Source: Botryllus schlosseri (Eukaryota). Taken from it: 64,000 nucleotides of DNA. Below are positions 4,263-47,915 of the stretch, one piece after another (within the stretch, counting starts at the first letter, position 1; the number at the start of each line of letters is the position of its first letter). The notes beneath the pieces are model-generated. The model saw only the letters and a list, made by a program, of their open reading frames with translations, was not told where the DNA came from and ran no database searches. The stretch spans positions 6,450,001 to 6,514,000 of the forward strand of contig CM119372.1 of assembly GCA_051294905.1 (NCBI GenBank). The letters are read 5' to 3'. The position numbers were made by a program, and so were the translations under genes.

Positions 4263-4344
4263 ATGGGGCGGCTTCGGTTACTTTCCGTCGTCAAGTTTAC
4301 TTTTGCTCTCTGCTGCGTGTCAGAAGCTTTCGTTTTGTCAACAG
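4263..4344 (+). CDS. Receptor exon 1, signal peptide MGRLRLLSVVKFTFALCCVSEAFVLST
   Basis: ATG at 4263, basic n-region then hydrophobic core, phase-1 donor G|GTACGT that matches the phase-1 acceptor at 6398. Confidence 0.7.
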
Positions 4345-7300
4345 GTACGTTATACAATCAGCATAAATTATATTATACATGATCAGATACGTTATATTGC
4401 AATACAGCAGCTGTTGGCTCTTGGGCGGGTAGTAATTGTTATCACCATCGGGAAAATTTAGCTAATTTCTACATTATATATAACGGAACAATGTATCCCG
4501 CCCATTAAATCACCAAGCTATTTATCAATAATCTATACTCCGCAACGTATTGAGGCAGTAGTACCCCTTTGTGCATTATGAATTCGGCTAACCTCTACGC
4601 ATGGTAGAATTCAGTTTGATTGTGAATAGTAGCAGAACTCGTCAGTCCTCATATCTAGCGAAATTCAGTGTTCGTCGCCATTTAGTGCATCGGATTCTAT
4701 CCGCCCAATCAATGCTATATCATGCTACTTATCGGTTTCGAAATATTTATATTTTAGAAAGCAATTATGTTTTTTCAAATTATGGCGGATGTATTTAATA
4801 ACGTGAACATCTGTAATCCAAACACTATGCAAAGTTGTATATCGTTTGCTACGATACATTTTTATGATCTCGTTTGTATCATGATAATTATAATTTGGAA
4901 GATGGCAGAAATTTGAATTGATGACATTTAGCCTATACGCACAGTACACATTTCCGCTATACGTGTCTAATAGCCTTAAAAATTAAATCGAGAGCAAGTT
5001 AGCTATACCTATCAAATCCTGGCAACCACGAATCCGTGTGTCTTACGACATCTTCATGTTACTATCGGATTAGATATAGGCCTAGGTGTATTCCTTATAT
5101 ATCTGATAGTTATTCGGCTGCAAAAACACATACTATGATCATCGAAGATAATAACAGTAGCTTAACCAATATTTATAGCGCCCAAGACATGTTATTAATA
5201 TTAATATTCCCATCCACGAATTTCGGGTATTTAGATTGCGATGTCGCATTGTGTCATCGCCATATAGCCCATCTATGATGCTACAGTATGGAAGTTGTAT
5301 TGGAAAGCAATCGTTTTTGTCTCTGCTCGATTTTCTGGTGTCTTGCTTGCTTTTCCGGCAGCATATTTGTAGTAGGCTTATTACTGACAACATATGAGAA
5401 CGTATGATCATAAGTATTCCAATTACGCAACTCAACCCTGCGGTTATTCTTTGTGAAGCTCGACCAAATATTTCCAGAAGTCATTTCCATCTACTCTCGG
5501 CTGATTAGAAAACGCAGTAATATAAATGTCATAATAGAATATGCTGTCTGAGTAGTTAAACGAGACAAAAGCTTTTACGACATGTCACAATATGCGTTGT
5601 ATGTTGATTGGGAAAACAAAATACTCGCGCCAGACCATCGCTGTAATGTCTTTGATAACATAAATTACAGAGAGTAAAATCAATATCACGTTGAACATAT
5701 GTTCATTACAGTCCGAAAAATGCCTATATACATTCTGGCCGCATCCATCATTCCCAAAGTAGAATAAAAAAGAACCTAGATCCTATGTAGCCAGAGATCG
5801 TCAAAGTATCAATAGTCAACGCTAGTACTAAAGTAGAAGCAACCTAGAAGCAACGGCCTAAAATTCTAGACAATTACGAATACCGATTCACAAGATATAT
5901 TAAAACTACTTCATGTGGACATGAAAAATGAAGGTGTGCTCATGCTGGAAAGTCCCGAAGCAAGTAGCCTAGTTTTGACACGTAGATTTGGTCGATGGGT
6001 CGTATACTTTTGCCGCCTAATTGCAGTAGGTGGCTAAAAAAACGACATGGTATATCTTCGCCGTTACCGCAAAATGCCGCTACTAAGGGGTGCGATTGCC
6101 GGAAATATATTCAGTTACTATGATACAAGGGCTGTTTCGACCAGTTGCTCTGACAATTTCGATTATGAACGACCTGAACATATCCCAAAACGAATATGTA
6201 GTTTACAAAATGTAATTTGTAAAAACCAAGTATATATTTCATAAACGAAATAACTATTACATGTGTAGGTTGTGTGAGTAGGCCGAACATACTTCAGGGC
6301 CTACTCCTCTACTCGCAGTACTTAGTTATTGACCACCTCTGCCTATAACTACGAATATGTGAAGATAAGCTATTATGAGTTGATATCTATTTTTCAGAGG
6401 TCGAAGTGGAATGTGTCACTTGGAATTTTGAAAAGATTCTGTGTAGGTGGAAAAATATCCGCGACGGAACTGAGACGATTCGAGGCAAGATTACCGTTGA
6501 ATTTGCAGCCAAAAGGTAAGCTGCGAATATGATGTGTACGGGAATTCGTCTTGTCCGATATTTTTCATTCACAGTTATGGCCATCTGCTTGTTTTGTTTT
6601 GGCGTGCACTCTAGGCGTAAAATATGAAGTTGACCGATTTGGATTAACACATTAACTACTTGAACAACGGGTGTGTCGAACTGTCCATACTGCAACGGTG
6701 CGTGATAGTTTAGCACGACTACTCTCAAGTATTTGAAGCATGTATAAAGCTATCCACTTACTGGCTGCCAATGGAAATGAAGCTAGAATTTGCCCAAAAG
6801 AGATGGCACCAATGTTCCCCCTAATTTTTGAAGAGTCTGCGCACACTCACCAAATCACTACGCAGATCCTTGGACAACAGTGTGTAACGACTATAAAAAA
6901 GGTCATCGATTCGGATTTTTTGTGCGCAACTTAGATTTTCTGTGAGCAGCGACCGTGTCATCACTGCGCATTTGCGCACGTGCGCAGCTTAGAGGGAACA
7001 TTGGATGGCACTATGCTATGGTAGCCTACTTGAATTTGGTGTTCTTTAATGTATTCTGAACAAAGTCCCCTTCTTTTACCAATGTCTCTGCACTGTAATT
7101 AGCAATTGTGATCAAGCATTCGTCGGGCTTTGCAAATCATGCAAACTATCATCAGACATACCAAGTACACTAATGGACTTAAATATTCATATTGTTTCCT
7201 ATTCACTTGAAGCCTTTCGAGAACAGGCTAATCCAGTGGTTCTCCACCTTTTTGGCTTCGCGGACCCCTTTTTGACCGTCACGGACCCTCGCGTACCCCC

Positions 7301-9799
7301 TCAAGATTTAGTTCAATTTTAGCTCAATTATGGTGCAACCGTCATCTGTCCTGTGCAAATATGAACTGTAGGCTTGTGATAAACAGCAACAAAATAACTT
7401 TTCTTGGAAGTAACATCATTATATTTATGTAGAAATTGGGCATACTTTTATTACATCAAAGCTAATTTTGCAGCAGTATTTCTTGAAGTACGTAGTCGTG
7501 TCTTGAAAATCGGCGCCTTCGATTTGATATGAACGAGTGCCGAAAATCCATCTCCACAAAGATAGATGGAGGCTAATGCAGCCTAATATTAACGCGTAAC
7601 GCTTCCGACGACACTTTTGGTGTGATCTCAACATTCATGGCACCAAAATGAAGAAACATATTTTTAATGGACATAACAAGTCCAGCCTCGTCATTTTTGT
7701 GTGGTATCTCCTCTTGAATTTATTCTGGAATACTAGTTAGGCTATGTATGTCACAGGATGAAATGGATTACGTGGCGAGGTTTCAATCCCTTCATTGGGA
7801 AAAATCAGGGAAAATACCTCAGAAAGTTTTATTTTAAACGACGGTTCGCGAATAAGATAAGACTGATGGCACTTGATATCGAAAAGGGTTTCGTAAACAT
7901 CGCGAGTCGGCCTGATTGACCTAACCATATCCATATATTTATTTTTTCCACAAACCCCAACAAATCGTTTCTGAACAGCAATATGTTGGTAAAAGTAGGT
8001 TATTGGCAATTTGGCAATTAAAATGCATTTGCATAATATGATATTTCATGTCAGACGGTTATTATGATGATGTGAGTCATGAAATTTTGCCAGTTGTCGT
8101 GCGAACTGCATCATGCTTTCTCAAATTAAAAAAAAAAAAAAATTAGGTTATCAATCAATTTCAGATCTCGCGGACGCCCTGGAATTGTTTCGCGGACTCC
8201 CGGTTGAGAACCACTGAGCTAATCAAATAGATTGCGACCCTCAGTAATGTAACCGCTGTGTAGGCCTAGTTCTCGAAACTTACCTACATTCCGATCGCAA
8301 TATATTACTCGTCACGGGTTACTGGTAGCAAGGGGTTATACTAAAAGTAGCATTAGTTTCCCTTGGATTTTAACACCAACAAAATGCTGATGGCAGTTGT
8401 TATCATATCTGTAACAAGCTGTCCCGTTGGATTGATGTTCAATTGTTCATTGTCCACTGTCCACTGGAAACCAGTGAAGGAACTGCCAATAACGTATACA
8501 GCGCATACGCCCATGACCGCATCAAATAGCATATTCCATCATCCATCAACTCTTACATATCGAATTCGCGTCAGAATAATCCCTTAGCCATTAAATACAA
8601 TCATGCCATGGCAGAACACTCTTCCATTGGTAACCATTTGTTTGTATAGGTTTACCATATTTTGGAATTGGGAAAAGAGGACACTTTTTCAAAATTTTCA
8701 AACTGGTAAATTTTTCCCACTTCGTGATTGGTTGACTAACAAAAAAGTCAACTTTCCCGTTCCGCCCAAATTACAGTATCTATCTTCTTTCACTTTATCA
8801 AGCGGTTGACTAAAATAAAGGTCCCACGAATTTCATATTTATGCCCATAATCACTACAATCTGTCCACTGTATTAGCTCTAACACGTGTAAAGGAGGACG
8901 GGTTGCAAAAAAGGAGGCGTCCTCGGAGGACATTTTCAAAAACCCGAAAAAGGAGGACAAATCCTCCTAAAGGAGGACGTATGGTAACCCTAGTGCATAC
9001 GCCATGTGCTGCAAATTACCAAGAGGACTTGTTCCATATTTGTGTCAGCTCGGGAAGTTACAGCTGAAAATATAATAAACGGGCTGTGTCCATCACTTCA
9101 ATCTACGAGTACAAGCAGATCTAATGGGACACCACTGCAATGCGCAGTAGAATTCAGCAGTAGTATGTGTGGCAGTGTTGTGATGACACGAGTCAACTTT
9201 TTTTGCATGACTTGATTGACTCGAGTCTCTTTGCGAAAACGACTACATTTCACTCAAACGCTGCGTTTTAAAGATTTGTTTGACTTGTGACTCGTTGCAA
9301 AATTTTAGTCAATTTCATGTCATCAAGTAGTCGGTGTTGATATGCTCTCGAACACACTGGACCGATGTCGTGACCAGTGACAGAAACCAGTCGTTCTACT
9401 ATTGTCCAGCTTAGTTTTACTGAGCCTCGATTGTTATTTCACATATAAATTGAACGTGAACAAGTGGATTAGAGCTAACCTCGTTGTAATAACTAGTAGT
9501 AATATAAGCCTTAGCTTATGCCGGTGTATTTCTGTTATACTGTTCGGTGCTTCCTTCAACATAACACTTCTATGATTTGACTCAAACGGGAATGTTTGTG
9601 AGTTATTATTACTAGTCAACAAATGGTTTACGCTTTATCTCATGGATGTATAGGTGGTTTGCGTCTCCCATCATATCAATTAGTTCAACTCTCGCAGGTT
9701 TCTCATGCATTCCGCTATTTTGTCTGATAATTATAAACCCGGGATATACAGTTACCTACGTAGTTTAGCAGTACCCGTGTGTGTGTGTGTAGGTCTTGG

Positions 9800-9832
<33 letters not shown>

Positions 9833-12800
9833 TGAACCCCCTCTGAAGGCTTGTGCTTTGCAACTACATGGGTATTCAGGCGATATCCAAACTAAATACA
9901 GGTTTATAGCCTAGATTTTTATGTTACGGCCAGGTGATGCTAACGCACATTTTTGTACATCCTAATTATGCATTTTTCCTGACCTTTATCCATCCATTTG
10001 GTTAGAACTTTCCATTGACATATTAGACTTGAGTCTACCCCAAAGAATGTGAATTCTTCAACGTGCACGTGCATAATACCCTTTTGAAATTTCTCTCGAG
10101 TAACGGCACTGATTGGTATGCATTTGGCAGTTCGCCAATATTTCAGGAATGTGTGGAATCTTCACAACCATTGCACCCAAACTACTCATCTTGCGTTTTG
10201 CCTTACCCCTCTGCATGGTTGAATAAAACTTTGCTGAGAAAAGTGTCTTCTTCAAATGAATTGCAGAGTAACCCAACTGTGGATGACTTCATTCCTGCCT
10301 GTGAGTTTTTATCCTTCGCTGTATTGATATACGAATGTATGGTTGAAAATTCCTTTTCGTAACAGTGGTGCTGTCTCCTCCTGTCATCAAATTTTCAAAG
10401 AAAATATTCGAAGGAAAGGTCAATGTATCACTCAACGTTTCTTTTGATGAACAATTTATTGGAAAGATGGTTTCTTTGTACTGTGGAACACCTGAATTGA
10501 GCGTAAGTGTGTTATCATTGTTTTCGGTGTTACGTCCTACTACTAATGACAAATGCAATGGATGCTTCAGTAGGCATGAAGCACTGTATTATATCTCAAT
10601 TGCAGCTTGTATTCATTGTCAATCGCAGTATTGTCAATTGCTGAAAGTGGCTAACCGTACATAACGTAGCTATGTGCTGCTTGCAGTGCTCTTCTTTGGT
10701 TACCAAAACTGTTCACATTATAATTGATTGAGACGGGTGTTTCTTGTCCATTTCTTTTATTACGGATTGCATTATGTATTGACAGATATTTTATCAAGCT
10801 GTTGCCTCGCAAGGACATGAAGAATACTCCGACGAGGTAAATAAATCTGTTTATTGTGTAAAATTATTTCTGTGGCAATCCACGTGTACTTGAGGACAGT
10901 TCTGTATTATATTTTCACACACGATAGTCAACAATGCTGGACCTGGAAGACTTTTTATTACGGACATAGAAAACTATTTATACTAGAAATAAAATCCATC
11001 TGAATAACTGATTTTGTCTTCAGTATAGCCGGTACCAGAATAATCGTATAGCTTGTAATTTACCAGTAGGTGCCTTCGCTCTTTATATAGATACATTCGT
11101 TCTGTAGACACTATACAAATTTAGGTCTTCCGTGTGCTTCAAATTTGAGCAATTGATGCCACTTTATGACCTGTTCCATCGTCAATTGCCATGAAAACTT
11201 TTCTGTTATGCCTAACCCTGAATCAAAATTCTGCATGAATCCTTGCAGCTCTCTTGGAAAGAGTGGAAGAGCTACAAAACATGGGATTTGCATGAATACT
11301 TGAAATACAAAGATAGGAAAATGAGAAATAGCAAAGCCTCAACATCAGAGGTGAGTGGGACTTTACAGTTCAGGAATAATTCTCGATATCAACATCAGTA
11401 TGCACTGCTATACATATTAGGGCTGTTCAAATTTAACGTTTTTTCCGTATTCCAGTCTTTCGCTGATTAAATTGTCAGGTTACCCTTTAAAAATGCTGCA
11501 CATCAAACTTGGTTCAATTCCAACAAGTATGCACTTTTTTCAACCCCATGAGATTGTTGAGTGGTCTTCCAAATTGACGCAAAACAAATTTGACTCAATT
11601 TTAACCAGTAGAAGCGGAGTTATTTGAGTTTTTGTTGATCATTTTCTTATTAGCCTTGATTGGTGATCAAGTGGTAATCAGTGGTTGGAATCCGGAAAAA
11701 AAGTTATTTTTGAGAGCCCTAATACACATGCATGCATACATTCATTTGAATATGGAATATAGTCTTAGTCATAGGCTGAATGAAATCGAAATTATGTTTT
11801 GAAACTTACGGTATACAAGTACAAAGAAGCTGGGTCAAATATTGTGGCTGCAGTGATGGTGGGAATAGTCAGAAAGATGAGCCGAATTAATCAAAATTAA
11901 TGTTTCAAAACGAAGTACATTCAAGTACGTAGCGTGGAACCATAGCAGAGTTTTGAGATGGGGCATCGGTACATCCAGAAAAATGTGTGTGTAGGTTATT
12001 CTATGTTGTCTTCAATCTAAAAGTTTGTCAGTTTGTATACCTGACAGTTCAGGTGATAATTAGTTAAAAAAATAATCATTTTTGTCAAAACCGGTGATAG
12101 AATCCATTCCACAGAACTCACCTTGCAACAGCCTAATGTGTATAGGAGTTTCGATCATAAAAATGTGTTCTGTGTATAGGATCAGAGTGAAAATTTGTAG
12201 AGGTGAAATTTACTTATTAATGACATGATGACACGAATATCCATTGTGACGTAACGACGATGAATGATGTCACAATGTTTAGGAGGAGCCAGGGTCATTG
12301 GAGCCTTTCACGTGCCCAATATTCTGTGGTTGTGTCCAGGATAATCACTAGCTCAAACCTTACAGAGTGAGATTTGTAGCCATATGAATTACATGTGCAG
12401 TCAACTGATTCATTTTACATAATAAATCAATCGTAACGTTCCAATAATTTAAAATCAATGATTGGAACACCATTTTATATCGAAAATTTCAATTTACCCA
12501 AGTTCAGGTAATCACACTCACTTGGGAAAATGTCAAATTCGCTGTATTTGACTAATTTTAATTCCTTTATATTCATCACAAACAGGAACAATGATGAATA
12601 TAGTGACTCAATCTAACGTATTCAGACTGAAACTGATGCTGTAAGAGGGCATCGCAATTTGTGTCTGATATCTTTGTAGGCTACCTGGTAGTCATGACTT
12701 TGGGATAAGTAATGAATCTGTATGATATTGTTCACCCAACTTAACTGTAAAAAAATATACTTATTATTATATTCTTTATTAGTATTATTGATACAACACA

Positions 12801-33800: not shown

Positions 33801-36800
33801 AAGCATTACCCCAAAATGGCTCTGTCGCACACTGTAAACGAAAATCGAGTATTTCGTCGATTTCCACCATAGTGTAGTAAGGTGAAAATTATCTAAACTG
33901 CAACTTCTGACACAAAATGTTGTTTGAAAATGAATCAAATACACAAATTGAAACAAATATGTAGATGTATGCCAGGGATATCCACTTTAATCGAATCTGC
34001 AACACCACTGGGGTATATCTAGGGTTGCATTTAAAGCAAAAATAAAAAAAAAACAAGCATGTTTAAAACAATGCCCTTGTTTAAAACATGTTTTTATTGT
34101 TTTTTTAAGCCATGACGTAACGAGTATTCATATGTGACGTCATAGTGGTTGACATTGACAATTGAAAATATAGAGTAAATATAGCTCCTGCTCCTTTGGA
34201 GATATAGGCTTCAAACCCACGTCATGTACGGACCAAAAATATCTTTAACCAGGACTACATCGGCAAGCAGCATTTTTAAGGTCGGCGATCATCATCATTC
34301 GAACATTATTTTCGTGCCAACGATCTTTTGAACTTTTGAACCGACTATTTCGAGGGTTCCAACCATCCCGTATCGTATACGTCGGCTCTTTCGGGTGGTA
34401 ATCGTCCGTAGGCTCATGTACTATGTTTTTTGGAAAGTATTTACACTATTTACGCATATTGTGGCATATTTATACAACTTAAAATAGGCCCTAGTTTAAA
34501 ACACTGTTAAACATGTTTAAACAACCGTTTGTTTTAAAGGCAACCCTAGGCATATCTCCATAAGCAGTTGTATTTGACTCGTTCCCACTCATTGGAATGG
34601 GCTTGACACCAAAATATTGTACTTGAAAGTGCGTATGGCCTGATTTGCTCCCCGTGCTATGGTGGAAACCCAGTAAATCTACTACATTTCAACCCATGAA
34701 TTTAGACATGTATAGGCCAACTATATCCATCTTGATCAGTTTTTTGAATATAAGCTGCTGGAGCACATATAGAACACCCTTTTGGCCTTTTATAACGCAA
34801 TATCAAAAGTCATTCCCTTACTTTTCCAGCGATATGACAAACATATCCTATCCGTTCGGCCTCGATACCGGCTACGGAATAGGCGTGGCTTTGTCTACGG
34901 TCGACGAACCGCACAACATACGCAACCAGTCGTCTACGCTCATCGACCCGAATCTCTACTACGAAATGCTAAACCCTGACGGTAAGTGTTATTGACTGCC
35001 TCATTTTCGTCATACGTCACCATGCGCGCAGTCCCCGCTAAATTACCATGACTTATTCAACAGATACGGTAGCTATAGGGCTGGGCACAATGAATAGAGT
35101 ACTCGAATCTGAATCGAGTGTTAATTTTAATGATTCGAGTCGAGTAGTAAAATACGATTTTTTCGAGTACTTAAATTATACGCTCCTCGTCACTGAAAGT
35201 TAATTTATCAACGAGGATTATAGTTTCGATAGCATTTTCCACTGTAGAAGCCTTGCAACCTTGATCAGATCAGTCGTGTCGCAGCATGCGAAACATATAG
35301 TACAAAGCTACGAACGTTGCTGAAAATAACACATTTCCGAAATACTGATCATCCCACAACATTGTCACAAAGTTCAATGAAATTGGTGTGGTCGAAAAAT
35401 TACCAAAGTATCTTTAAAGAGATGGATGACAGACATTATATTCTTGTGGTGTCATAAAAGGTTCATCTTTGAACTTTGACATGTTACATTCTGTTATGAC
35501 GTCATAATGAGTGATACTCGAATACTCGATTCGACTCGAAGCAAAATACGTGATTCAGAATCGAAAAACTCGGGTACTCGATTTTGCCCAGCCCTAACGG
35601 TAGGTCAGGGGTCGGAGGCCCGGCGTCTACCTATGCTCAAAACCTTACGTTCAAACACGAAGGTGATTACCAGGGCAAGTTTTTATTGCAGCTAAATCCG
35701 TGGAAAGTTGTATATATTTTTCACAGAAGTTGCAATGAAAAGTTGCATTAATTTTTTCAAAATAGTTCCACTAAAATACCACATTTTGGTCGGTTGACTA
35801 AAAAATTAACGTCAACTTCTCGGCTCAGCTCCCGAAATACACGTTAGAGTGTTACTTCAGTGCTCATTTACGGTATTTCAGTCGAATTAGTCCGTGTATT
35901 TCACCAAAATTCACAAAAAAACAGTGACATAATCAGGCGATCTATTTACATATACTGCCAAATATTTCCAGTAAAAAGTTGATTGCATAAAAAAACGAAA
36001 AAACTTTCATGAAAAATCGAAAAAGTTGCAAAAAGTTGCATGGAAAAAAATGGACAAAAGTTGCAAAAAGTTGCACAATAAAATTCCTTAAAACAGCTTA
36101 AAACAGCATTCTACATAACTTCCGGGTATTTAGGAAGCTGCAGGAAGCTGTAACAAAAAGTTGCAAAATATTGCCCTAGTGATGGCATTGCGTGACTTTA
36201 CTAACGTAACGTGCTCTCGGATGGCAGGATTCCCTTTAAAACTACCCTGCCGTCCATCACTGCTTTCTCCAAAGGCTCGGTCCGGACATAATAACGTTGC
36301 CATGCAACACACTAGTCGACCTTCATTACTCTGTTGTGGAAAACGCCTCTAACAACTCCATATCCGTGTACACTGTACAGCATGTGTGTGACTTGCGCCT
36401 GAAAATAGTAGCATCGCGGTTATATGTTCTATATCCTCGTCATCCAATTAGGATGGAAGCACAGCAATATGGCTTACACCAGGGGTCCATAACACACGTC
36501 CCGCGAACTGATTTGAGATTTTTGAAGAACGCTTTGTAAATCATTTTGCAATACGGAAATTGGTCTTAGTTTAAAATTGTTATTGTTGTTGTTGTTCGAA
36601 AACCCCTTTTTCACTATTCCACACTAGCTAATACGACTTAGGTGACGGTAATAGCATTCCATGGAGGAATAATTAGCTGATATGAATGGGAATGGGCAAT
36701 GGGCATATTGCCTTGACGTGCAATGGGCCAGACACTACCGCGAAAGTGACGCTTAGAAAACGAATTGGAGCTATACCCCACAAGATCATGCTTTGCGATG

Positions 36801-39800
36801 AGATAGTTTTCCAGCAAGTACCGTGTCTAGCTAACCCCAATAGCGCTTCTTTATAGTCACTGGAAATAGTTGTCAGTTATCGTGCGCTGCTGACAGTTCG
36901 AAACTGTTTGCCCGTCGCCCCTGTTAGAGAACAAATCGTTGTAGTGACGTAAAGTTTTAAAAATGAGGTTGTTAAACTGTGTGGCCTATTTTATCTTGGT
37001 ATTGAATTCATGCGGCAGGCGGCCTCTACGAAATTTGAGAAGTGGCCAGCCGCCCGTTTTGAGTTGGCGACCCCTGGCTTACACCCACGTCTCAAGAATA
37101 TCATATGACCGGGAGTCTTTTGGCTATTCCAGATGGTGCTGACAAATCCAGATCCAAGTTGTCAGCGTTGTTACTCAAAATTTTCTACTTTATTACAAGT
37201 AGAGTTTTCAACACGTTTCAAAACTACTTCTAGTATAAGTAGGCGATTGAATGCCTGGAAAGCAGTCAATTAGTTTCAAATAATATATTTGGTCGAGTGG
37301 CCGCTTACTGCAGCAAATCGGAGGTGGCTGCTTTCGAAATTGCAAGATGCATCTTGCCAGCTAACGCAGAATTGGTAATGACGTTACACTCTTAGCGAAA
37401 AGACTGTGTAGTCGCACACAAAGCGCCGAAAAGGATGGTATACTATATCATATATCATATATCTTTTTAACATTACGTTGGCGAAGAGAAATATTCTTTT
37501 ACGAATAGCACGCTGACTAGATATTGCAGCATACACCGTCACGATAATAGCCACGATAACGATTCCCCGGATAACATTTCCGATACCATAATCAAACCCG
37601 CGCATTTTCAGTCTCAACAGGAGCGCCAATGCAGCTGACCGCGAGCGACGTGGGCACGACTCAACTCACAATTAGCTGGCGGCCGTCGAGGCCTCAGCGG
37701 CGCCACATGCCGGTTTTGAGATACGAGATCTTCATGACGCACGAAAAGCAATGCGCGCTGGGTCACGACGACGAGATATGCGACTGGCAGGAACACGGTG
37801 AGCTAAGAGGCTTAAGTCTAATTAGTTGACATAGGCGCTGAGATAAAGATCTTCAAAACGGTGCTACGAAAGCGCATTCGCTCTATCGCGTTGCGTATCG
37901 GTAGGTGAACTTCTTACGATATTTGGAATGTGCTGGTGTTATATTTTCAAGAGCTTCTCGGGGGTACATACCTTCAATATACAGTTGAGTAATATATTAA
38001 TATTGAAATAAACCCGAATATTTGCGGCTGACACTCGTCAGGGGTAAAAGTTAGCAACTAACAGAGAATTGGCTCCACTTCTTCGAATTCTCTACTTGTT
38101 ACTACCAGTTCAGAAATGCAAGGATGCACCTTTTAAAGTGCATCGTATTGTTCGATCGAAACGCAAAAGGGGTGATCCAAATTCCCTAACTACAAATGAG
38201 CTTATAAGTAGGGCGAATTTTTTGACCTACAAAATGGAAGATTTTGATCTACAAAATCAAAATTTTGACATTTTTTCACCTTAAAAATCAAATTTTGACC
38301 GAATTTGACCTAGCGTATGCAAATTAGGTGTTTTCCTACGTAATGTTAGAATTGTGCTACTTATCCTCATTTCTGGTTGGAATTGTCTGTCCTTACGAAG
38401 TAGTTTGGCCTGAAAAAAAACTTTTTTGACTCAAAAACTGACAAATTGTTCTATGAAAAACTTTATTTTAACAAAATCTGGCCCTATGAAGATTTCCAAT
38501 AGTTACATTACGCGCTATGGTAGAAAAAATTGAAAGAAATTGTAGTACAACGAAAGATGCTTTCCTACATTCTCGGGTAGAAAGTGTCTGTCCTTACTAA
38601 GTAAGTAGCTTGCCAGGAATTGAGAAAGAACATTCAACAACAGCAGTTGTTGGCTGACAACATTGAAGTTGTGTGTACACTGCTGGTGACAAACAGTGTT
38701 GCTTCATTCTGGCAATGGTTTTTACATCACACTTTTCATCATGCGCTTCTTGATTAAGAACCATGCAATGCCCACGCAGTCTTGCTTCAGTTGTGATATT
38801 GCGGTACGTTGAGCATAACACCATGTCTACCTATTTGTTTCATTTGAATGTTTATGATTCACAATGAGCAGACAATGGGCCGTCTACTACGGTAGGCCTA
38901 TAAAGTAGGCTACAGGCTGTAAAATGTCAAATGATAAGTTCACCGACAGTGCAAAATCTACGATACAAACGAAATGCAAAAAAGTTTTAACTTTGTAAAA
39001 AAATATGAGATTTTTTGACCTAACGCTAGAATTTCGACCTAATTTTGACATTTTTTGACATGTCAAAAAAATCACCCTACTTATAAGTATTAAAGATAGA
39101 ATCGGCATTTTAAAAGGACAGGATACGATTTCGAACGCTAACCTTCCATGCGTTACGCCACGGCACACGACGTACCAATCTACGGTGGCCAAGACGGCCG
39201 TATCATCACAAATCATTAGGGATGGTGTGAACGTGAGGTTCACGTTCGCGTTCTGTGTGTGAACGAGTGAACCTCAGAAATTTAGAGGTTCGCGTTCACA
39301 AACGAACCTTGGTAGGTTCTGCATTGTGAACCTTTTTCGTACATTACAATTTTCACTACAATATAATAACTTCGCATGAAATTTATTGCATTTCAACTGT
39401 GGGCCACTCTATGCACGGTGCTGGCAGCATAAAAGATCAACACCAAACGAGCATGCACCTTGATAACCTGAAAGAATTTACTTGCTTTGTTACAAAACTT
39501 TGCTCGAAATATCCAGCTTTCCGTTTGTGAATATTTAGTGACTCTCTGCTGTGAGATGGACCCGCAATCACACAACATCAAGAGCGAAATACACTACAGG
39601 TAGTCAGCGAATGATGATTATTTAATCAATCAATGGAATTGATATCGTTGTCTGATGTAAAAAAACATCTAGCAGGCGTACAGGGTCAAGCTTGGCTTCG
39701 TATGTTCATGGTATCATAAAAAACATACCCGTGCGATGGGGATGTTGGCTATTTCTGTATAACTTGTTAATGGGGAAATATCCGTAGCAAGTATAGAAAC

Positions 39801-42800
39801 ACGTTTTACACTCTGGTCAATATCAACGTCGCAATACTCATACGCCGAATACATTGTTCGTGCAAGCTTATATTCCCTTGCAAGACCTCGTCGAAATTGT
39901 TGGCAAAGCGACGGAAGATATTGATTTAATGGGGTTATTATATCATTTGATTGTCCCAGTTGATACATTTGGCAACGTTTTAAATGTCAAGATGTACTTC
40001 AGCATTGTGGCAATATATATGTGGCCCGAATCGTCGCTAGGTATCGTATACAATTGTACATTAATATAGGCTATCACGTCACTGAAATGTAGTGTTGGAA
40101 TTAGTAGCAATATGACGTCACCTTATGTCATGAGGTTCACGTTCGCGTTCACACAGAACCTTTAAAAAGCTTAGCCTTCACACGAACCTGAACCTTCCAG
40201 AGGCTCACACCATCCCTACAAATCATATTTATTAGTTGAGTGTGTGTCCTGACTTCTAGGGAACCTCCGAGACTGGCTTATGGAACCTATAGTGTTCTAT
40301 GGAAAACCGATAAAGAACCATTGTACTAGACTCATTATCGCGACAAGGGGACGGGACAACACATTGCCGCTATAAGGATGTGCTGCCGCAACGCAGCGCA
40401 TTTAATGTATACACAGCACAAAGAAGATGTGTTTGCATAACTATATAGTGATCAGTGAACGAGTCCTCGCAATGTAAACAGACCGCTCATGATAATCTAA
40501 ACTTTCAGAAATAACCGTTGCAATTTACCTCTTTAATATTTTCTCTCATTCACAAATCGTTGCTTGTGCCTTTACAGTATGAATGGCCGAGTCATAACGT
40601 ACATGTCCGCCGCCCTATTTCCAATTATAGCGATGGCATGTGGAGGAATTAACAAATTAATTTGAATACGACGACATGAATTTACGTGGCATTATATGCA
40701 TATGCGAATTCGATAAATTACGCCGGTGTACCGTTTCCAAGCGAAATTGCTGCAACGCGCGCAATGACTGCATCGCTTTATTCGCTATTTGGTTATATGT
40801 CACAGCAACACTGCTCATGGGAATACATCAAGGTCTAGTGGTGTCCCCTGAGAAAGAAATATTTAGTCTCTCTACTATTTTGAGTTCAGTGGCGACTTGC
40901 CAATAATTCTTTGTTCAAAGCCCATTCCTTTGGTCGCCATCGCCATTCGCAAAGCACAGGGCATATAACATATTGCCTGTGGTCTGTACTTCATATGACC
41001 ACGACCACCCAACATGATAGCATGCGACAATTGAGCATGTATGGTATATTCCGGGTTAGGGTTGGGTTAGATTAGGGTTAGTATATATAAGGTTTAATTT
41101 CAAGATTCGGGTTTATTATGGGGTTATAAAGTCACAAGCCCTGGTGACTAATGCTAAAGTGTCGCATAATCAACTGACGTTGAGCAACTGTAGGACATGT
41201 TCTGTTTTCCCATAATACATTAAAATTATATCATACCTACACAGTTTTTCCCAGATTCGTTTAGAATTAGAATTATTGAACCCGTAAAAATTGGAAATTG
41301 AATTGAGTTCCTAATAAGAAGTAATGCAACAAAAATCGACTTCAGTTCATATCAAATCAGATCTCATTTTCATAAAAGCAGGATAATGGAAAATGTCTGT
41401 ACACAAAGCTTGGGTCGTTTCACCCTGTGAAGTTCTCCTGTAGCACTTTCAGGAAAACAAGAAATTAGATTAGAATTAGATTACCAGCATTTCACTCTGA
41501 TTGTCTAATTAGACATCTGGAATTATGTAGTTGTGTAGGTGTCATTGCCAACGCCATCTCATGATTGCGATTTCTTTCTTTCGCAGTCCCGGATAGCTGT
41601 TACGCGAAACCGGCCAAACTGTACGAGGTGACGAACTCTTCAGAATTCGGGAGCTGGGAATACGAGAAGAGAAACTACAGCAACGTAATGTCGGTCACAT
41701 TTTTCGAGCTGTCGCCGGGCACCAGCTACTACATCACCGTGTGGGAAGTCACCAAAGCCGGCAGGAGCAAATGCCTGCGACACATCAACGAAATCACGGC
41801 TTTCAATTTGTACGCGACTTGCGGGCTTTGAATTATTGATGCGGCTGCTAACGGTGGCGTGTTTACAGCTGGGTCGCGTACGTGGTGCTGGGGTTTCTGG
41901 TGACCTTCGCTGCGGTTTTGCTGTTGCTGAAGTTCCGGCGGAAGGTGAAGAAAGTGTTTCAGATCGATATTCCGGAGCCGAGGATTTGGATAGATTGGGT
42001 ACGCTGTTGCGTTGTATTTATTACCTTTGCGTCCTTGGGCTCCTTGCCCAAGAGATATCGTTGCGCAATAATTACGGGTCTGGGATCGCCGCTTGATGCC
42101 TAGCGTTTGGGCTCAGCATTCAAGCCATCCTGTTGACCTCATATTTTCAACGCATTGTGGTAATAGAAATATAACGGTGGTCGAATTCTGATTTTTTGTC
42201 CGCCGGTTGTGTCAAAAAAGCCGTAATTTTGCTGCCAGTTCTGTTACAAAATGTCATTCACAGCCACCAATAATGCTAACAGGTTGGTCGATCTGATAAA
42301 ATTTTGGGAGACGGCCCCATAGAATTAGTACGACCCTGCTGAATTCGTCCACTGGGTGTATATACCTGATTTACGCAATTTCGTAGGGTGCAAATCAGAC
42401 CATGTCAATTTCCAATATCAAATATTGCTTTCACATCGATGAAAACGTGTCATGTGTATGAATACTTAACGAGATATATCCCATGGGTGTATTGGGTTCT
42501 TTTATCGTTTTTCACCTTTTTGCGTTCTCTTGGAGTGATACACGAACGCAGAAACCAGTCCACCTCTGGGATAGATTTCCAAAACGGTCCGAATGCACAA
42601 GTCGAAAATTTGTAGGGAGCTTCAGCACTTTTCGCCCCTTGGCTGTATCACTGTGAAGAGAGTGCTTTTGTCCCAGTTCTTGCCCGCATTGTGATTAACG
42701 AGAGATTTTAATCTAACCTGGCTATTTTCCGGATTCTAAAACGGCTTGTTTACGTTTGCACACAAAAGGGCCGTGTTCTCGAGAAATCCCTTCTCAGGGT

Positions 42801-45800
42801 ATTGAAATTTGCTATATTTCATGCTTTGCCCAATATATATAGAGCATTTAGATGAAGTTAACCAAAGGTGACACTCATAAATTTAACATCCCGAATCCTG
42901 TACTGGTCCGGATCAGGGTTCCGTTCTCCAGATTTCTCTTCGTTAGAATCTTAACATTTTGAACCCAAGAGCGACTCAATTAATGATCTACCACCCATTC
43001 CTCACGCATGACGCGTCCGAGATTAACTACTACCGTCTATGTTTCGAGACTGATTTAATACCACAGTTTGCGTAGCTGATACCCGTCTCAAAGTACGTAT
43101 CCCGCGTTTCTCGAGAACGCTTGATAGCGGTAGTTATGAATTCCGCGCCGCCCTACAATATCAACACGGGCCCGGGGTGTTGGCACGGTTTTCTTTCGCC
43201 GGTATTAGAAGCGTTGTTTTAATTTCGCGCAGAAGTCGGTCGAGAACGAGAGCGAGCCGACCACGGATAACCAAGACAGTCGCATCGAGGACGGTGACGA
43301 CAGGAGTAATTGTTACGTCGCGCTCTTGCGGTCGATGGATAACGGGGTAAGTTGGAGGTCGCTGTCTCCTAGAAAATCGCACGAAATTTAAAAAGTTCGC
43401 AATATCCCAGTAATCGAACTACGTCACCACGCGGTGACGTTAGGTAGGGCTCGAAGCGGCGTATTGGGTGGCGGTGCGCGCCCTCTACATTCGTTCCGTG
43501 TAGAAACTATCAAGCGCAGGAGCATTGTGTGCTTGTAGATTGTGCCAATACAATCTGACAAATCGCAAAATACAATCGAATACCCTCTTAACGAAAAGAC
43601 TGTGCATCCACACCCAAAAGGTGGTACACGCAAACGTAAAAGCGAAACAACTTACTTTAGTAATCCGATAAAGTAAAGGTAATTCGTTTCTGACCACCTC
43701 TACTGTACTGTATTACGATATATACAATTGAATATTATATTCATATTGAAATGAACACGAATATTCTCGACTGACACACGGCAGGGGTAATCGTCAGCAT
43801 CTAGTATAGAATTGGAAAGAACATTGCATATCAACAATCGTACACAAAATTATGTCGTCACTGGCATGAAATTCCGAAAAGTTAAAAGACTTGAAAAGTT
43901 TTATGCGATATGGTTCAATTTAGGGCTGAAATTACTTTCAACTGAACAGAGGAATATGCATTCGTTTTACAAACCAAAAAGCCTATGAGGTTTTTGTGAC
44001 GCCAGGATTAGGGTTGGGCACAATGATTCGAGTAATTTAATCTGAATCGAGTATTCCTTGTAGTGATTCGTGTCGAACAGCAAGAAAATATTTTTTCATG
44101 TACTGAAATCATACGCTCCTACACGCTAACAGTTGAAATATCAACTAAAATTATAGTTTCGATACTATTGCGCAGTGATGGTGTTGTTGTTTTTGGTATT
44201 CATGGTGTTTGCGGGTTGCTATGGTCATTTACATCGGGCCAATTTTCTTGATTTTTATTCCGTAGATGCCGGCTTGTAGCTTTGGTCCCTTCTAGGCTTT
44301 TGTAAGACACCGCTTACACGGATGAGATGGCGAGCAGTAGCCTAGATTAACCCCCAACACTTTGGTAAGAATTCGGGAGCCGACCTCGGTCGGACTCGAA
44401 CCCGCAAACCATCGGTGTTGCAGATGTGTATTATACCCCTCGCCACCTATATTGTCCGCTGTGAAACCTTGGAACCTCGATTGGACTTATTGCAACGCAC
44501 GTAGTCCAAAGATACGGAAGTTAGTGGAACTAAATTTTCCGTGGAGTAGTGATCAGCCCACAGCATTGTCACAATGTGCCGAGATTTCAGAAAGAAATAG
44601 AAAAATACCAAATTGTCTTAAATGTGATCTAAAACTGGCACTATTCTCTGTTGTGGTATACATACACTATTTGAACTTTCCATATCATTCATACTGTTGT
44701 AAGTGTTGTAACATTATAATATATGATACTATAGCCGGTATTTATTGATCCCCCTTCAACACATGAAATTTCAGTGGCGAGATAGCGTATAGTGGTATGA
44801 TCCACAGCTGCAACACCAATGGGTTGCGACCGAGATCGACTCCAGAATCCCTACCCAAGTGTTAGAGGCTTATCTAGGCTCCTCCTCGCCATATCATCCG
44901 CGTAAGCGGTGTCTTATAAAAAGCCTAGAAGTGGGCCGTGCTAAAAGCCGGCAGATACGAAATCAAAATAAAGACAATCGGCCTGGTGTAAATGACCAAC
45001 GACCATTGTAGTCGACAAGCGCCATGAGTAATACAAACAAACAAACAAACATGAAATTTCACACTGACGGGCGCAAATTTGATGGTGCAGAGCACGACGC
45101 CGAACTCTCGCTCCAATTCGGAAACGATGGACGTCGAGCATCCGATCATGATCACCGACCCGGAATTACGTCATAACGGAAAAAGCGACGCGCGCGTAAG
45201 CGATTTATCGTCGTGGTCGCGTCCTGTCTGCTTTGCTGACGGGAATGTTTTTTTCTTGCAGAATCACGGCAACAATAATGAAATATTGAAGAGGCCGCAC
45301 GGCGAAGAAGATTTCGAAGACGTGGAAAGGTTGGTTTTGCTGGCCACTAAGTATACTTGGTTCTTGCCCGTTCAAGTTGATCTTTTTTCTCGACGTGGCC
45401 GTGGCGCTATTCCACAATACATTCGTTTTGGATTTGCCGCTTTCAGAGGTATAGTCAAAGTAGTCAGCTTTGCGTTGGTTGGTGGTTCTCGTGTAGAAGT
45501 AGCAACGTGCATTTCTACTCGATTATAAGTAGAAATAACATACCAAAAATAGCTAAATCGAAGTCAAAAATGAAGGTAAGAAAAGCATTGAAGCAGTGGC
45601 TCTCAACCTTTTTGTCTTCGCGAACGCCCTTTGGACCGCCACGGACCATCGCGGAGCCCTCAAATTTCAGTTCAAATTTAGCTCTATTATCGCGCAACCG
45701 TCATCTGACTGTGCAAATATTAACTGTATAGGCTAGCGATAAACAGCAACAAAACCACCTTTCTTGAAAATAACATCATACCATTTATGTCGAAATTGGG

Positions 45801-47915
45801 AAGACTTTCATTATTTCAAAGCGAAGTCTGTGGATACATTTCGTGAAATACACTGCCGTGTGTCGATTTGACATGAACGAGTGCCGAAAATCCATTAATT
45901 ACGAATGTAACAATAACGCGTAACGCTTCCGAGGACACCTTTGGGTCTGATCGCAACATATATGGCACCAATATAAAGTCCATCCGGGGCCTACGATATC
46001 CTGAGTTTTAGCAGTTATGAAGCGAAACTGCTTCGTGATTTCTCTAATTTTTAAAAATATATACAAATGAGGTGATCACATAATTTGTAATTTGGAGGTT
46101 TCGCGGACCACCCGAAATTGCTTCGCGGACTCCCGGTTGCGAGCCACTGCATGAGAGTAACTACTTTCAAAAAGTAGATTTGATCGATGGGTCACGCACT
46201 TTTAGCAGTTAATGTACTCAGTTGTCGTGACTGTGATGCTGGGGCGATTTTGCCCCGTTGCTGCGGCAATACCACTCATAAAAGGGGTACAAATATGCAC
46301 GCAAACAACTTTCTACTTCACAAAGGGTAAACTGAAAAAAGTAATCAGTTTGCCTACAGTTGAGTTCTTTTGAATTCCCTACTAGTTGCGGACGAGTGTC
46401 GGTCGAAAATATTTGAGTTTATTTCACTTTGAGTATTGAGTATACTCTTCAATTGTATATTGAAGAATCTATCACTGCAAGTGGTACTGCTCTGATTTTC
46501 CTCTCTGTTTTGCAGTGCGGATGTTTACTGCGTAGCAAGTTCGGATTCGGCGCACGGCAGGACGCTGACGGAAACCACCTCCCTCGGTTCGGACGAACCT
46601 TGCTGCTCCGTGTCGACGGGAAATATCAGCGGTACGTTCATGTCATTGGCCGCGTTACATCGGGTTTCGGCTCGACACTGCGAGTAATCTGCAAATCTCT
46701 GTGCGATGTCCTTCATTCGAAATTCGGATGATTAAATGCGACTGGTGTTTCGGTGGGGGTTCACCGGTTAATCGTCGCCAATATATCCATGTGGTTTCCT
46801 AGGGGGCCCTGTATGATGCAGAATTCTCTTTTTTTGTAGAAACGCGTTGTAGAAGTGAATGCAGAATGATTTTTCACTTGTCAGTATTTAATAGGCAATA
46901 TTTAGTATTTCAGCATCGTAAAACTGTTTAAATCCTACTTGAGTTAGTTACGCAGGCTAAGTTAAATAAGAAGATAAACCTACTTGAGTAAGAGAAACAA
47001 GTAGATAATACATACCCAAGTACTATGAAAAGCAGAAGTACTTCTAGATTTTAGGGGGCGATAAAGATATGTCGAGCTTTATAAGGGGGAGATGAGTCAA
47101 CAATGTTTGGGAATCGCTGCTATAAATGATGAACTGAGGCAGTAATGAAACTGATTACCGCAATGTGACGGTCCGTCGGGTGTAAATAAAGGCCATGCGG
47201 ATAGCCGGGCTCCGTAGACCTAAGATCCCATATCAGTCAACTAAGTAGGCCCTCCGAACCGAATGTAGGTCGTAATTTATACTTTCATTGGTCGATATGT
47301 CCGATGTCACATTCGATAGCCGTTCATACGCCTAGGATATATGTTTCTATCCATACCGATTAGACTGCTGTGTTAGTCGGCGAGAAGAATAAAGAAACCT
47401 ATTCCTTGATTCTGACCAGGCATGTCGGCCGGTGACGAAGAGGCCGGCGACACCTACATCTCCGCAAACGAGGCCGCAAACATGAGTTGGCTGCTGGGAT
47501 TTGATAGCGGCCGCGAGCGCGTAGCCGATAGACTCCTCAGCACGGGGCCGTAAGAGTTCTCATCCTGAATGGAGAGCCAATTCTGGCTTGATTGAAAGGT
47601 GCGGCGCTACAACGCATTAGGAAAGGCGACTTTCAAGCTCGGGGACTTTGTAAATGGGACGTATGCTCGACATGATACGTGGACTTGGGCGTGACGAGCG
47701 CCGGTTTGAACCATTGTTGCAATTGCCATAGCAAAAGTCGACGGACTCTAACCGGATATTTTATTTGATACTTCCCATGCGTGTTACAGCACTTCGATCA
47801 GGATATTGCGTTTCGGTCAGAAAACAGTATTTCATATCACACCCAGTCATATCGCATCGTGTCGGCAGTATCTGCGGGCGTAAACATTGTGCCTGAATTG
47901 CACTCTTTCATATAA
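4263..47915 (+). CDS. Multi-exon class I cytokine receptor (gp130/LIFR/LEPR family): SP-CHR1-Ig-CHR2-FN3x3-TM-cytoplasmic tail, ~1244 aa
   Basis: Hand-assembled exons with AG/GT boundaries and matching phases: 4263-4344, 6398-6515, 10131-10300, 10366-10502, 10786-10836, 11249-11350, 13598-13715, 13773-13861, 14780-14815, 14930-15026, 16036-16177, 16532-16707, 16771-16916, 19091-19156, 19858-19998, 21481-21649, 21725-21798, 22498-22568, 23938-24080, 25366-25499, 25559-25629, 33355-33480, 34830-34981, 37612-37797, 41587-41809, 41869-41998, 45091-45195, 45262-45329, 46516-46631, 47420-47549, 47621-47660, 47790-47915. The total of 3735 nt is one open frame. Family motifs: C-x9-C-x-W, WSxWS-like, FN3 L-x-P-x-T-x-Y, TM, Box1-like IPEP. 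The small exons and the last three exons are less certain. Confidence 0.85.
6398..13715 (+). CDS. Receptor cytokine-homology region 1 (6 exons)
   Basis: EVEVECVTWNFEKILCRW (C-x9-C-x-W); SSCVLPYP...VSSSNEL...FIPA; LVLSPPVI...; final exon IYLDTFPVNREYLLQVRWRADTSLCKSDWSPF (degenerate WSxWS). The 1-2-1-0 phase pattern is typical of CHR modules. Confidence 0.85.
6810..7003. mobile_element. hAT-type MITE
   Basis: TIR CAATGTTCCC / GGGAACATTG, perfect TSD GATGGCAC. Confidence 0.9.
7234..8216. mobile_element. Non-autonomous hAT (Charlie/Buster-like) with possible transposase remnant
   Basis: TIR CAGTGGTTCTC / GAGAACCACTG, TSD GGCTAATC/AGCTAATC. The - strand reads FP...RNPF, resembling Charlie-type transposases. 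A shorter copy lies at 45594-46149. Confidence 0.85.
8647..8992. mobile_element. hAT-type MITE with GAGGAC subterminal repeats
   Basis: TIR TAGGTTTACCATA / TATGGTAACCCTA, homologous to 50757-51207. Confidence 0.8.
9777..9831 (+). repeat. Interrupted (GT)n microsatellite
   Basis: GT dinucleotide runs seen directly. Confidence 0.9.
11418..11721. mobile_element. hAT-type MITE related to the 60604 family
   Basis: TIR TAGGGCT / AGCCCTA, TSD ATACATAT/ATACACAT, shared motifs TTTGGTTCAATTCC and GAAGCGGAGTTATT. Confidence 0.8.
13773..15026 (+). CDS. Receptor Ig-like domain (about 3 exons)
   Basis: NIILSPINIQMNRDSNVTLTC / FEWRILPGDGNS / YNLVHMKEMDYNVECLSTVSGRDFDGIMVHVG gives the Ig C...W...C pattern, ending V-x-V-G just before CHR2 as in gp130/LIFR. 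Confidence 0.75.
15300..15546 (+). mobile_element. tRNA-derived SINE, full length
   Basis: A-box-like TAGCGCAGTGG, B box GGTTCGAGTCC, GCA at the anticodon position (possibly tRNA-Cys origin), (ACAA)n tail, TSD AACCTGTAGAAG (15286-15297, 15547-15558). Confidence 0.9.
16036..21649 (+). CDS. Receptor cytokine-homology region 2 (6 exons)
   Basis: TPKFYEVDCLMHNMERIYCRY; VEISVSTSNVFGVSTSNLTFNPLHKIHPSAP (like the gp130 D2-D3 junction VEAENALG...FDPVYKVKPNPP); LAANTRYLVEVIWKTKSFMCNGSWSVPS (WSxWS-like). Confidence 0.85.
17258..17517 (+). mobile_element. Possible LTR fragment preceding a tRNA-Leu PBS
   Basis: TATATAA at 17406 and AATAAA at 17448, followed by TGGTGGCAGCG, a tRNA-Leu PBS-type sequence. 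Boundaries are uncertain and no second LTR or TSD was found. Confidence 0.45.
17518..17573 (-). pseudogene. Retro-copied fragment of mature tRNA-Leu (about position 29 to the 3' CCA)
   Basis: The reverse complement reads GGT TT GAG TC ACCAG TCATTTCGATGGC GTGGG TACGAAT CCCAT CGCTGCC A CCA: Leu-type long variable arm, T arm, acceptor 3' strand and an encoded CCA. The 5' part (acceptor 5' strand, D arm) is missing. Confidence 0.85.
20870..22445. repeat. Dispersed AATTAG-rich repeat family, copies in both orientations
   Basis: Shared core AAGCTTGGCTCG...TTCTCCTGTAG...AAATTAGATT at ~20870-21075 (+), ~21855-22090 (-), ~22100-22445 (+), ~29235-29470 (+), ~30195-30450 (-), ~31500-31880 and ~41265-41535 (+). 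Class unresolved. Confidence 0.65.
21725..41809 (+). CDS. Receptor membrane-proximal fibronectin type III domains (three)
   Basis: SLLVWNN...GTVKAIGSNEV; FKVEW...HFFTW...GLDTGYGIGVAL; STGAPMQLTASDVGTTQLTISWRP...LRYEIF...ELSPGTSYYITVWEVTKAGRS (clear FN3 signature). Confidence 0.8.
23073..23830. mobile_element. Non-autonomous hAT element
   Basis: TIR CAGGAATGGCCAACCT / AGGTTGGCCACCCCTG, TSD GTCTAATC/GCCTAATC. Confidence 0.85.
26182..28230. mobile_element. 2.05-kb non-autonomous hAT element with (GTAATC)n subterminal arrays
   Basis: TIR CAGACATGGGGT / ACCCCATGTCTG, perfect TSD ATCACGAT (26174-26181, 28231-28238), GTAATC repeats at both ends. Confidence 0.92.
30663..30943 (-). mobile_element. 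tRNA-derived SINE, same family, antisense
   Basis: GGACTCGAACCC and a TTGTTG tail on the + strand. Partial copies also lie at ~20252-20405 (-), ~28629-28678 (+) and ~50341-50465 (+). Confidence 0.85.
32355..32893. repeat. Old palindromic (foldback) MITE remnant related to the 60604 family
   Basis: Diverged inverted arms (for example AAACGCTGCAC...GCCGCCGCAAAGCCAATT versus AATTGGCTTTGTGGCGGC...GTGCAGCGTTT). Termini not resolved. Confidence 0.7.
34020..34548. mobile_element. hAT-type MITE
   Basis: TIR TAGGGTTGC / GCAACCCTA, TSD GGTATATC/GGCATATC, TTTAAAAC subterminal repeats. Confidence 0.87.
35076..35596. mobile_element. hAT-type MITE with ACTCGA subterminal repeats
   Basis: TIR TAGGGCTGGGCA / TGCCCAGCCCTA, imperfect TSD ACGGTAG. 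Related fragments at ~28352-28630 and ~44008-44690. Confidence 0.82.
35671..36178. mobile_element. hAT-type MITE with AAAAGTTGCA repeats
   Basis: TIR CAGGGCAA / TTGCCCTA, TSD GTGATTAC/GTGATGGC. Confidence 0.75.
36480..37076. mobile_element. Non-autonomous hAT element
   Basis: TIR CAGGGGTC / GACCCCTG, perfect TSD GCTTACAC. Confidence 0.87.
37972..38070 (+). repeat. Short dispersed repeat (CAATATACA...GAATATT...CTGACACTCGTCAGGGGTAA)
   Basis: Similar copies at ~29605-29700 (+), ~43720-43830 (+), ~25795-25880 (-) and ~46375-46460 (-). Confidence 0.6.
38209..39079 (-). mobile_element. hAT deletion derivative retaining a C-terminal dimerisation-domain remnant
   Basis: TIR TAGGGCGA / TCACCCTA, perfect TSD CTTATAAG. 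The - strand reads CCQPTTAVVECSFSIPGKLLT, like the hAT P-x-T/S-x-x-x-ERSFS motif. TTTTGAC subterminal repeats. Confidence 0.92.
39217..40218. mobile_element. 1-kb non-autonomous hAT element
   Basis: TIR TAGGGATGGTGTGA / TCACACCATCCCTA, perfect TSD CAAATCAT, collinear with 48937-49963. Confidence 0.93.
41869..41998 (+). CDS. Receptor transmembrane and Box1-like exon
   Basis: WVAYVVLGFLVTFAAVLLLL followed by a basic stop-transfer KFRRKVKK and FQIDIPEP, at the position of Box1 (IWPNVPDP in gp130). Confidence 0.88.
44180..44446 (-). mobile_element. tRNA-derived SINE, same family, antisense
   Basis: Reverse complement of the family consensus, with GGACTCGAACCC on the + strand. It interrupts a remnant of the 35076-type hAT family starting near 44008. 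Confidence 0.85.
44774..45048 (+). mobile_element. tRNA-derived SINE, same family
   Basis: Same head and body, (ACAA)n tail, 13-bp TSD ACATGAAATTTCA (44761-44773, 45049-45061). Confidence 0.9.
45091..47915 (+). CDS. Receptor cytoplasmic exons, putative terminal YHTQ (YxxQ) motif
   Basis: Phase-compatible Ser/acidic-rich exons 45091-45195, 45262-45329, 46516-46631 and 47420-47549. The frame then either stops at TAA 47551-47553 or splices via 47621-47660 to 47790-47915 (HFDQDIAFRSENSISYHTQSYRIV...FI*). Confidence 0.6.
45594..46149. mobile_element. Shorter copy of the 7234 hAT family
   Basis: TIR CAGTGGCTC / GAGCCACTG, internal sequence collinear with 7234-7640 and 8165-8216, degenerate TSD. 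Confidence 0.85.

Follow-up and report, generated by a model that had tools for sequence, protein, structure and literature searches.

A spliced gene for a LIFR-shaped, gp130-family-like receptor lies on the plus strand of the stretch of Botryllus schlosseri DNA analyzed here (64,000 nt; assembly GCA_051294905.1, contig CM119372.1, positions 6,450,001 to 6,514,000; hereafter the window). The gene is real and expressed, and its product, judged from the sequence, is likely a class I cytokine receptor of the "tall" type from an ascidian, a single-pass protein with two CHR modules around an Ig-like domain. As far as the available text of the literature goes, tall receptors of invertebrates have a single CHR, and two-CHR layouts belong to jawed vertebrates. 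A two-CHR receptor in two proteins of ~42% identity would thus mean either that the vertebrates' sister group arrived at the LIFR/LEPR layout a second time or that this layout is older than thought. The best explanation overall, which we regard as reasonably probable, is a duplication of this lineage's own combined with the signaling scheme proposed below.

Gene Structure and a Full-Length Relative

The gene model comprises 31 exons from an ATG at 4263 to a stop at 47551-47553 and encodes 1244 aa with no internal stop (Table 1). Exons were built first from the window sequence and then from RNA joints and comparison with a related protein, P0001; domain limits were placed from exon edges and motifs (CHR1, aa 28-259; Ig-like domain, 260-352; CHR2, 353-617; three FN3-type domains, 618-1022). 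The exons are phase-consistent throughout, and all introns are GT-AG except the GC-AG intron after 16916. The window has ~40% GC, and short introns of 57-75 nt are mixed with longer ones. Because the longest exon is 223 nt, the gene is invisible as a long ORF, as a preliminary description of this DNA had said. The order given there, SP-CHR-Ig-CHR-FN3x3-TM-Box1-tail, is recovered in both the window model and P0001; of its 32 phase-consistent exons, the phase consistency stands and the count to the supported stop becomes 31. Exon 19091-19156, which has no joint among the RNA joints listed, is needed by the model and is the best candidate both by splice score and by likeness to P0001. A candidate exon near 26731 was dropped after 25559-25629 had matched P0001, and a stop-containing frame at 21071-21188 was dropped because RNA skips it.

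Some splice sites leave room for variant products. Paired in-frame alternative acceptors occur at 25559/25562 and at 37612/37621. The introns 13716-13772 and 14873-14929 (57 nt each) are in frame and free of stops, so their retention would add 19 residues apiece; the first sits before the Ig domain and would yield a hydrophobic product, and the second lies inside the Ig domain.

Table 1. Parts of the receptor gene in the window, with the RNA joints listed for them
Feature	Positions	Strand	Observations	RNA joints
Exon 1, signal peptide (aa 1-27)	4263..4344	+	Ends in phase 1; hydropathy peak 1.87; matches P0001 N-terminus
CHR1 D1	6398-6515, 10131-10300	+	C33-x9-C43-x-W45-x28-C74-x13-C88; 44/96 residues identical to P0001	6515>10131
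CHR1 D2	10366-10502, 10786-10836, 11249-11350, 13598-13715	+	Degenerate WSxWS (KSDWS), Cys before it; 54/135 residues identical to P0001	10836>11249
Ig-like domain	13773-13861, 14780-14872, 14930-15026	+	C281, C335	13715>13773, 14872>14930, 15026>16036
CHR2 D1	16036-16177, 16532-16707	+	C-x9-C-x-Y, without fourth cysteine	16177>16532
CHR2 D2	16771-16916 (GC donor), 19091-19156, 19858-19998, 21481-21649	+	NGSWS, Cys before it	19998>21481
FN3-type 1	21725-21798, 22498-22568, 23938-24080	+	Motifs and position; collinear with P0001
FN3-type 2	25366-25499, 25559-25629, 33355-33480, 34830-34981	+	Motifs and position; collinear with P0001
FN3-type 3	37621-37797, 41587-41809	+	Pfam fn3 E 5e-5 and 1e-3; collinear with P0001
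TM helix (~aa 1025-1043) and Box1-like IDIPEP	41869..41998	+	Hydropathy 2.76
Cytoplasmic tail (~200 aa)	43233-43346, 45091-45195, 45262-45329, 46516-46631, 47420-47553 (stop)	+
Doubtful 3' extension	47621-47660, 47790-47915	+	Frame open; 33 exons in all

The relative was found with HMMER by searching 1.84 billion representatives with an 88-aa query, the frame at 13598-13861; 4 matches were returned. The best of them, P0001 (E 7.9e-8), is a protein of 1245 aa from a 4186-nt Logan contig and has one near-identical cluster mate; the other three, P0002 (a repeat protein), P0003 and P0004 (both with generic FN3 repeats), were set aside as unrelated proteins. P0001 and the window protein are identical at 515 of 1211 aligned positions (~42%) and collinear in exon order, and P0001 runs from a signal peptide through CHR, Ig, CHR and three FN3 domains to the TM helix and Box1. 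The two-CHR order therefore exists as a single ORF in a second gene. Identity is 33-51% across the ectodomain domains (42-51% in the three FN3-type domains) and 75/168 in the tail, where the tyrosine motifs YVAL and Y[IV]SA are conserved. P0001 may come from another species as an orthologue, or it may be a paralogue. Word-based protein searches gave weak blanks: the last FN3 exon had no match among 4 candidates, and with P0001 as the query the sole match among 7999 and 62 candidates was P0001 itself.

The comparison with P0001 also bears on where the protein ends. The preliminary description had carried the gene to 47915, and the end is probably at 47553, since the additional exons begin at a poor acceptor and P0001 stops at the equivalent of 47553. 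The first acceptor of the extension scores -5.2, where the 29 core acceptors, which also trained the matrix, range from 3.1 to 15.1, the codon use of its last exon is equalled by 19% of 3000 stop-free intron frames, and P0001 holds no counterpart of 47621-47915. We keep this extension as a doubtful candidate, together with the YxxQ motif that it would supply if spliced in, because an unspliced last intron would look alike in the window and in P0001. With a protein that probably ends at 47553, the tail has no YxxQ, and none is found in P0001.

Class I Cytokine Receptor Features

The class I signature in the first FN fold is CX(9-10)CXWX(26-32)CX(10-15)C (PMC1963337). It is complete in CHR1 of both the window protein (Table 1) and P0001 (C34, C44, W46, C77, C91). 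CHR2 fails to show it, having CX9CXY and no fourth Cys. The second FN fold is described as carrying WSxWS, with variants such as that of GHR accepted (PMC1963337, PMC4325515). The canonical motif is present in neither protein; at the expected places stand KSDWS and NGSWS in the window protein and RSYWG and QGDWS in P0001. A signal peptide, one TM helix and a Box1-like proline motif are all present, and the signal peptide and TM helix are the only two hydrophobic peaks in the receptor. IDIPEP lies ~12 residues past the TM helix, and P0001 shares it exactly, along with the three residues that follow. The features of group 2 receptors (gp130-like, tall) are likewise found, namely, an Ig domain that precedes a CHR and FN3 modules that separate the CHR from the TM helix; this placement draws on weak Pfam Ig_3 and fn3 matches, the collinear order in two proteins and Atlas neighbours that are all group 2.

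In the Atlas, residues 26-272 of P0001 alone have class I receptor or IL-12p40-type clusters in all of the best 10 rows (top 0.90, others 0.85-0.88, lead level). The whole of P0001 is placed with LIFR, OSMR, gp130, LEPR and IL31R clusters, all tied at 0.97, with a recognition value under the tool's own benchmark. Pfam places fn3 on P0001 at E 1.1e-7, with no Pfam match to the first two FN3-type domains, and Ig_3 on P0001 277-333 falls below the cut-off (E 0.0084), as do the CHR families LIFR_N (E 0.013, exon 2) and IL6Ra-bind (E 2.7). A sequence search of the PDB returned zero matches for P0001 (E up to 1) and for the exon with the WSxWS position of CHR2; the last FN3 exon matched fibronectin, Eph and Dscam. 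AlphaFold2, run on the single sequence without an alignment, gave an overall pLDDT of 33, and fold searches returned nothing beyond generic beta-sandwiches; the Ig-like domain was the sole part modeled as a beta-sandwich (pLDDT 50-67). Taken together, the motifs and domain order indicate that the gene very probably encodes one two-CHR receptor of class I type.

Proposed Signaling

By analogy with LEPR and G-CSFR, a four-helix cytokine would bind one chain at its CHR2 elbow and a second chain at its Ig domain and would thereby cross-link identical chains. The three FN3 legs would then draw the TM helices together, Box1 would hold the sea-squirt JAK, and JAK would phosphorylate the two conserved tail tyrosines (YVAL and Y[IV]SA), which would dock STAT or SHP/SOCS, with CHR1 being accessory, as in LEPR. 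We give this CHR2-plus-Ig homo-oligomer mechanism roughly an even chance. Tails without YxxQ favor STAT5-type docking. Because the supported tail is of this kind, STAT5-type or SHP/SOCS wiring is predicted, and the STAT in question would more likely be of STAT5/6 type.

Leptin contacts one LEPR chain through CRH2 and another through the Ig domain (PMC13681652), and Box1 is the site of JAK binding (PMC4325515). In Ciona, one jak, stata, statb and one shp are reported (PMC3296744), and homodimeric signaling has been proposed for the gp130-like receptor (PMC1963337). The preliminary description had implied a helical ligand and a JAK/STAT axis; of the two, the axis had already been described in Ciona (PMC3296744). 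An IL-6/leptin-type ligand is reported to be missing from tunicate annotations (PMC12284397), and the receptor offers a bait for it.

The cysteine signature is complete in CHR1, whose conservation against P0001 (46/40%) exceeds that of CHR2 (33/35%). CHR1 could thus be the binding module, and this is the chief argument against the homo-oligomer scheme. It is possible, if rather unlikely, that CHR1 is the main ligand-binding module or that the receptor is a LIFR-like chain of a heterodimer with a second, single-CHR gp130-like chain. Such a partner could supply the STAT3-type sites that a tail without YxxQ does not, and P0001 could be a paralogue rather than an orthologue. However, a single signaling class I chain is reported for Ciona in the available text (PMC1963337), and in LEPR it is CRH2 that forms the high-affinity site, with CRH1 dispensable (PMC13681652, PMC12284397).

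Origin of the Second CHR Module

The two-CHR, LIFR-like layout claimed in the preliminary description is upheld within one gene. That description left the choice between a pre-vertebrate LIFR-like receptor and an independent duplication, and the six-exon structure and odd residues common to both modules favor the duplication. CHR1 and CHR2 are homologous, matching each other by profile in both halves (D2-D2, E 1.7e-5; D1-D1, E 2.4e-4), and these are the only comparisons under E 0.001 among the 28 pairs of the eight ectodomain domains. Their alignment reaches z 4.1-8.6 over 500 shuffles in all four pairings. In both CHRs, D2 has a cysteine pair whose second Cys is preceded by a Trp at a distance of six residues, and WSxWS has lost its first Trp.

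Each CHR consists of six exons with phases 1-2-1-0-0-0-1. The 1-2-1-0-1 phase pattern quoted for class II receptors is expected for class I receptors too, in keeping with the exon counts of human LIFR and lamprey LepRL given below, and by that expectation each CHR here has two extra phase-0 introns. Intron positions were compared on a four-sequence MAFFT alignment made blind to introns, with vertebrate, lamprey, amphioxus and Ciona sequences outside it. Two of the three D2 introns fall at the identical column and phase in CHR1 and CHR2; the third is 5 columns apart, yet in each module it precedes the same Tyr by 12 residues, and the D1 intron is 6 columns apart. The probability of two exact D2 matches by random placement is 1e-4 (400,000 trials), and that of one exact match is 0.009 when one shared intron is granted as ancestral, both tests having been picked after the pattern was seen. 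The three FN3-type domains also have extra introns, but these share no common phase pattern.

Vertebrate modules appear to be built from fewer pieces. Human LIFR has 19 exons in total (PMC3995696), and the third FN3 of lamprey LepRL is described as exons 11-12, which would leave about four exons for its CHR. Vertebrate CHR modules would thus have fewer exons than those here. The simplest reading is that the duplicated unit was a module already remodeled within this lineage, and an independent internal duplication of its six-exon module, from which the first CHR likely stems and which would be convergent with LIFR and LEPR, is in our view probable. Duplicated CHRs are reported from LEPR, the thrombopoietin receptor, bird and lizard PRLR and whale-shark GHR, that of LEPR being described as gnathostome-specific (PMC12284397); this recurrence in vertebrates makes another origin plausible and less surprising. 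Counting against a duplication of this lineage's own, the intron after CHR2 is off the module edge, with exon 21481-21649 extending 15 codons into FN3a. The identity between CHR1 and CHR2 is only 18-21%, so the event is an old one, perhaps earlier than the split of tunicates and vertebrates.

Comparison with Known Receptors

The closest layout is that of LIFR, described as SP-CRH1-Ig-CRH2-three FN3-TM-tail (PMC3995696), and LIFR and OSMR are the top Atlas clusters; in OSMR the first CHR is partial. The window gene differs from human LIFR in its 31 exons and its six-exon CHRs, and from both LIFR and OSMR in its lack of a canonical WSxWS, its extra D2 cysteine pair and the lack of YxxQ in the supported tail; in addition, P0001 has no sequence match to PDB chains. 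LIFR and OSMR are defined by several STAT3 (YxxQ) sites and a C-terminal internalisation motif (PMC1963337). The CHR-Ig-CHR-FN3x3 order is found here, whereas these sites and this motif are not seen in the 31-exon tail. Gnathostome LEPR likewise has two CRH around an Ig domain, signals without gp130 and owes its layout to a duplication called lineage-specific (PMC12284397); its own features are an extra N-terminal domain, two FN3 and YXPQ (PMC13681652, PMC12284397). In the window protein, D1 follows directly after the signal peptide, there are three FN3-type domains, and YxxQ is absent from the supported tail. Because the defining tail and domain features are absent, we withhold the label of LIFR or LEPR orthologue.

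Orthology with LIFR, which would make the gene a pre-vertebrate LIFR-like receptor, is nevertheless the rival to be weighed, and we consider it unlikely. The window protein has precisely the LIFR domain order, with three FN3 and no added N-terminal domain; a weak LIFR_N match falls on exon 2, and the low identity between the two CHRs is that of an old event. The ranking of LIFR and OSMR as first and second in the Atlas points the same way, but with gp130, LEPR and IL31R tied at the same value, rank is no sign of orthology. The lamprey study leaves a loss of CRH1 possible, although the four lamprey receptors in it are single-CRH or IL6RB-like, LIFR being outside that study (PMC12284397). For the Ciona gp130-like gene, the ESTs described cover aa 662-1124 only, and the N-terminus is without EST support (PMC1963337). 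The missing tail motifs of LIFR and the extra introns common to both modules argue against orthology. It is similarly unlikely that the two-CHR layout is ancestral to tunicates and vertebrates and that the single-CHR gp130 type arose by loss. If this were true, the tunicate "gp130-like" gene would be LIFR-shaped, its first CHR having been overlooked in Ciona, the accepted order of events would be reversed, and the ligand would be the first LIF/leptin-type cytokine of an invertebrate chordate.

Like the window receptor, the Ciona intestinalis gp130-like receptor (BN000969; PMC1963337) is a tall class I receptor of a tunicate, has FN3, TM and Box 1, and is possibly an orthologue of it; by its description it differs in its single CHD, its order (Ig-CHD-FBN-TM-Box 1) and its gp130-like pattern of splicing. 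Lamprey LepRL and IL6RBL1-3 and Drosophila Domeless are also tall, with a CRH, FN3 legs and a JAK box, and differ, as described, in a single CRH where stated and, in Dome, a CHD contained in one exon. No two-CHR receptor of an invertebrate was found in the literature on invertebrate and tunicate class I receptors, mostly papers available without subscription. A protein of this kind may already carry a LIFR-like label in the RefSeq annotation of Styela or Ciona.

RNA Evidence for a Single Gene

Four runs were compared over 4150-24140, a region with 18 introns. Seven of these introns, including the CHR1-to-Ig and Ig-to-CHR2 junctions, are among the RNA joints listed (Table 1), with 53 more joints outside that list. 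Two of the seven occur in raw X12 reads (2 and 4 reads) and the others in X3 or X1 contigs; the joint 10836>11249 is carried by 4 raw reads and one contig, and 19998>21481 is present in both X1 and X3. The RNA origin of X1 and X3 is guessed, yet their contigs are spliced, and exon depth in the bulk runs X12 and X16 is very low. A single X3 contig (depth 10.7) provides the CHR1-Ig joint, connecting 13714 to 13775 with 3 letters between, 2 of which are unlike the window.

A split into two genes at 13715/13773, named in the preliminary description as one result that would contradict it, fails because this contig joins the two blocks and P0001 is one ORF. It is thus very improbable that the model has fused neighboring genes, one for a soluble alpha chain consisting of a CHR only and one for a gp130-like chain, or describes a non-cytokine FN3 adhesion receptor, as might be argued from the single contig with its differing letters, from the lack of any listed RNA piece covering the whole of 4150-24140 and from sequence searches that match no solved cytokine receptor: the blocks lie just 57 nt apart, no second signal peptide occurs, the entire order is carried within one ORF by both P0001 and P0005, and the gene shows the cysteine signature, Box1 and intron phases of 1-2-1.

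Other Features of the Window

Most RNA reads are drawn by cross-mapping intronic repeats at 12780-13070, 15300-15520 and 18200-18400, which look like short interspersed elements. Downstream of the receptor, a copia-type LTR retrotransposon is represented on the plus strand by a 717-codon frame at 51668-53821, with matches to gag, a zinc knuckle, a protease-like region and a partial RT. Two similar tandem spliced genes for inosine-uridine nucleoside hydrolases are found on the minus strand at 54164-55737 and 57437-58696, the first with a Pfam PF01156 match at E 7e-37. ARAGORN found no tRNA in the whole window. A near-identical tandem duplication of ~350 nt at 58700-59340 is visible as repeated frames in the ORF list.
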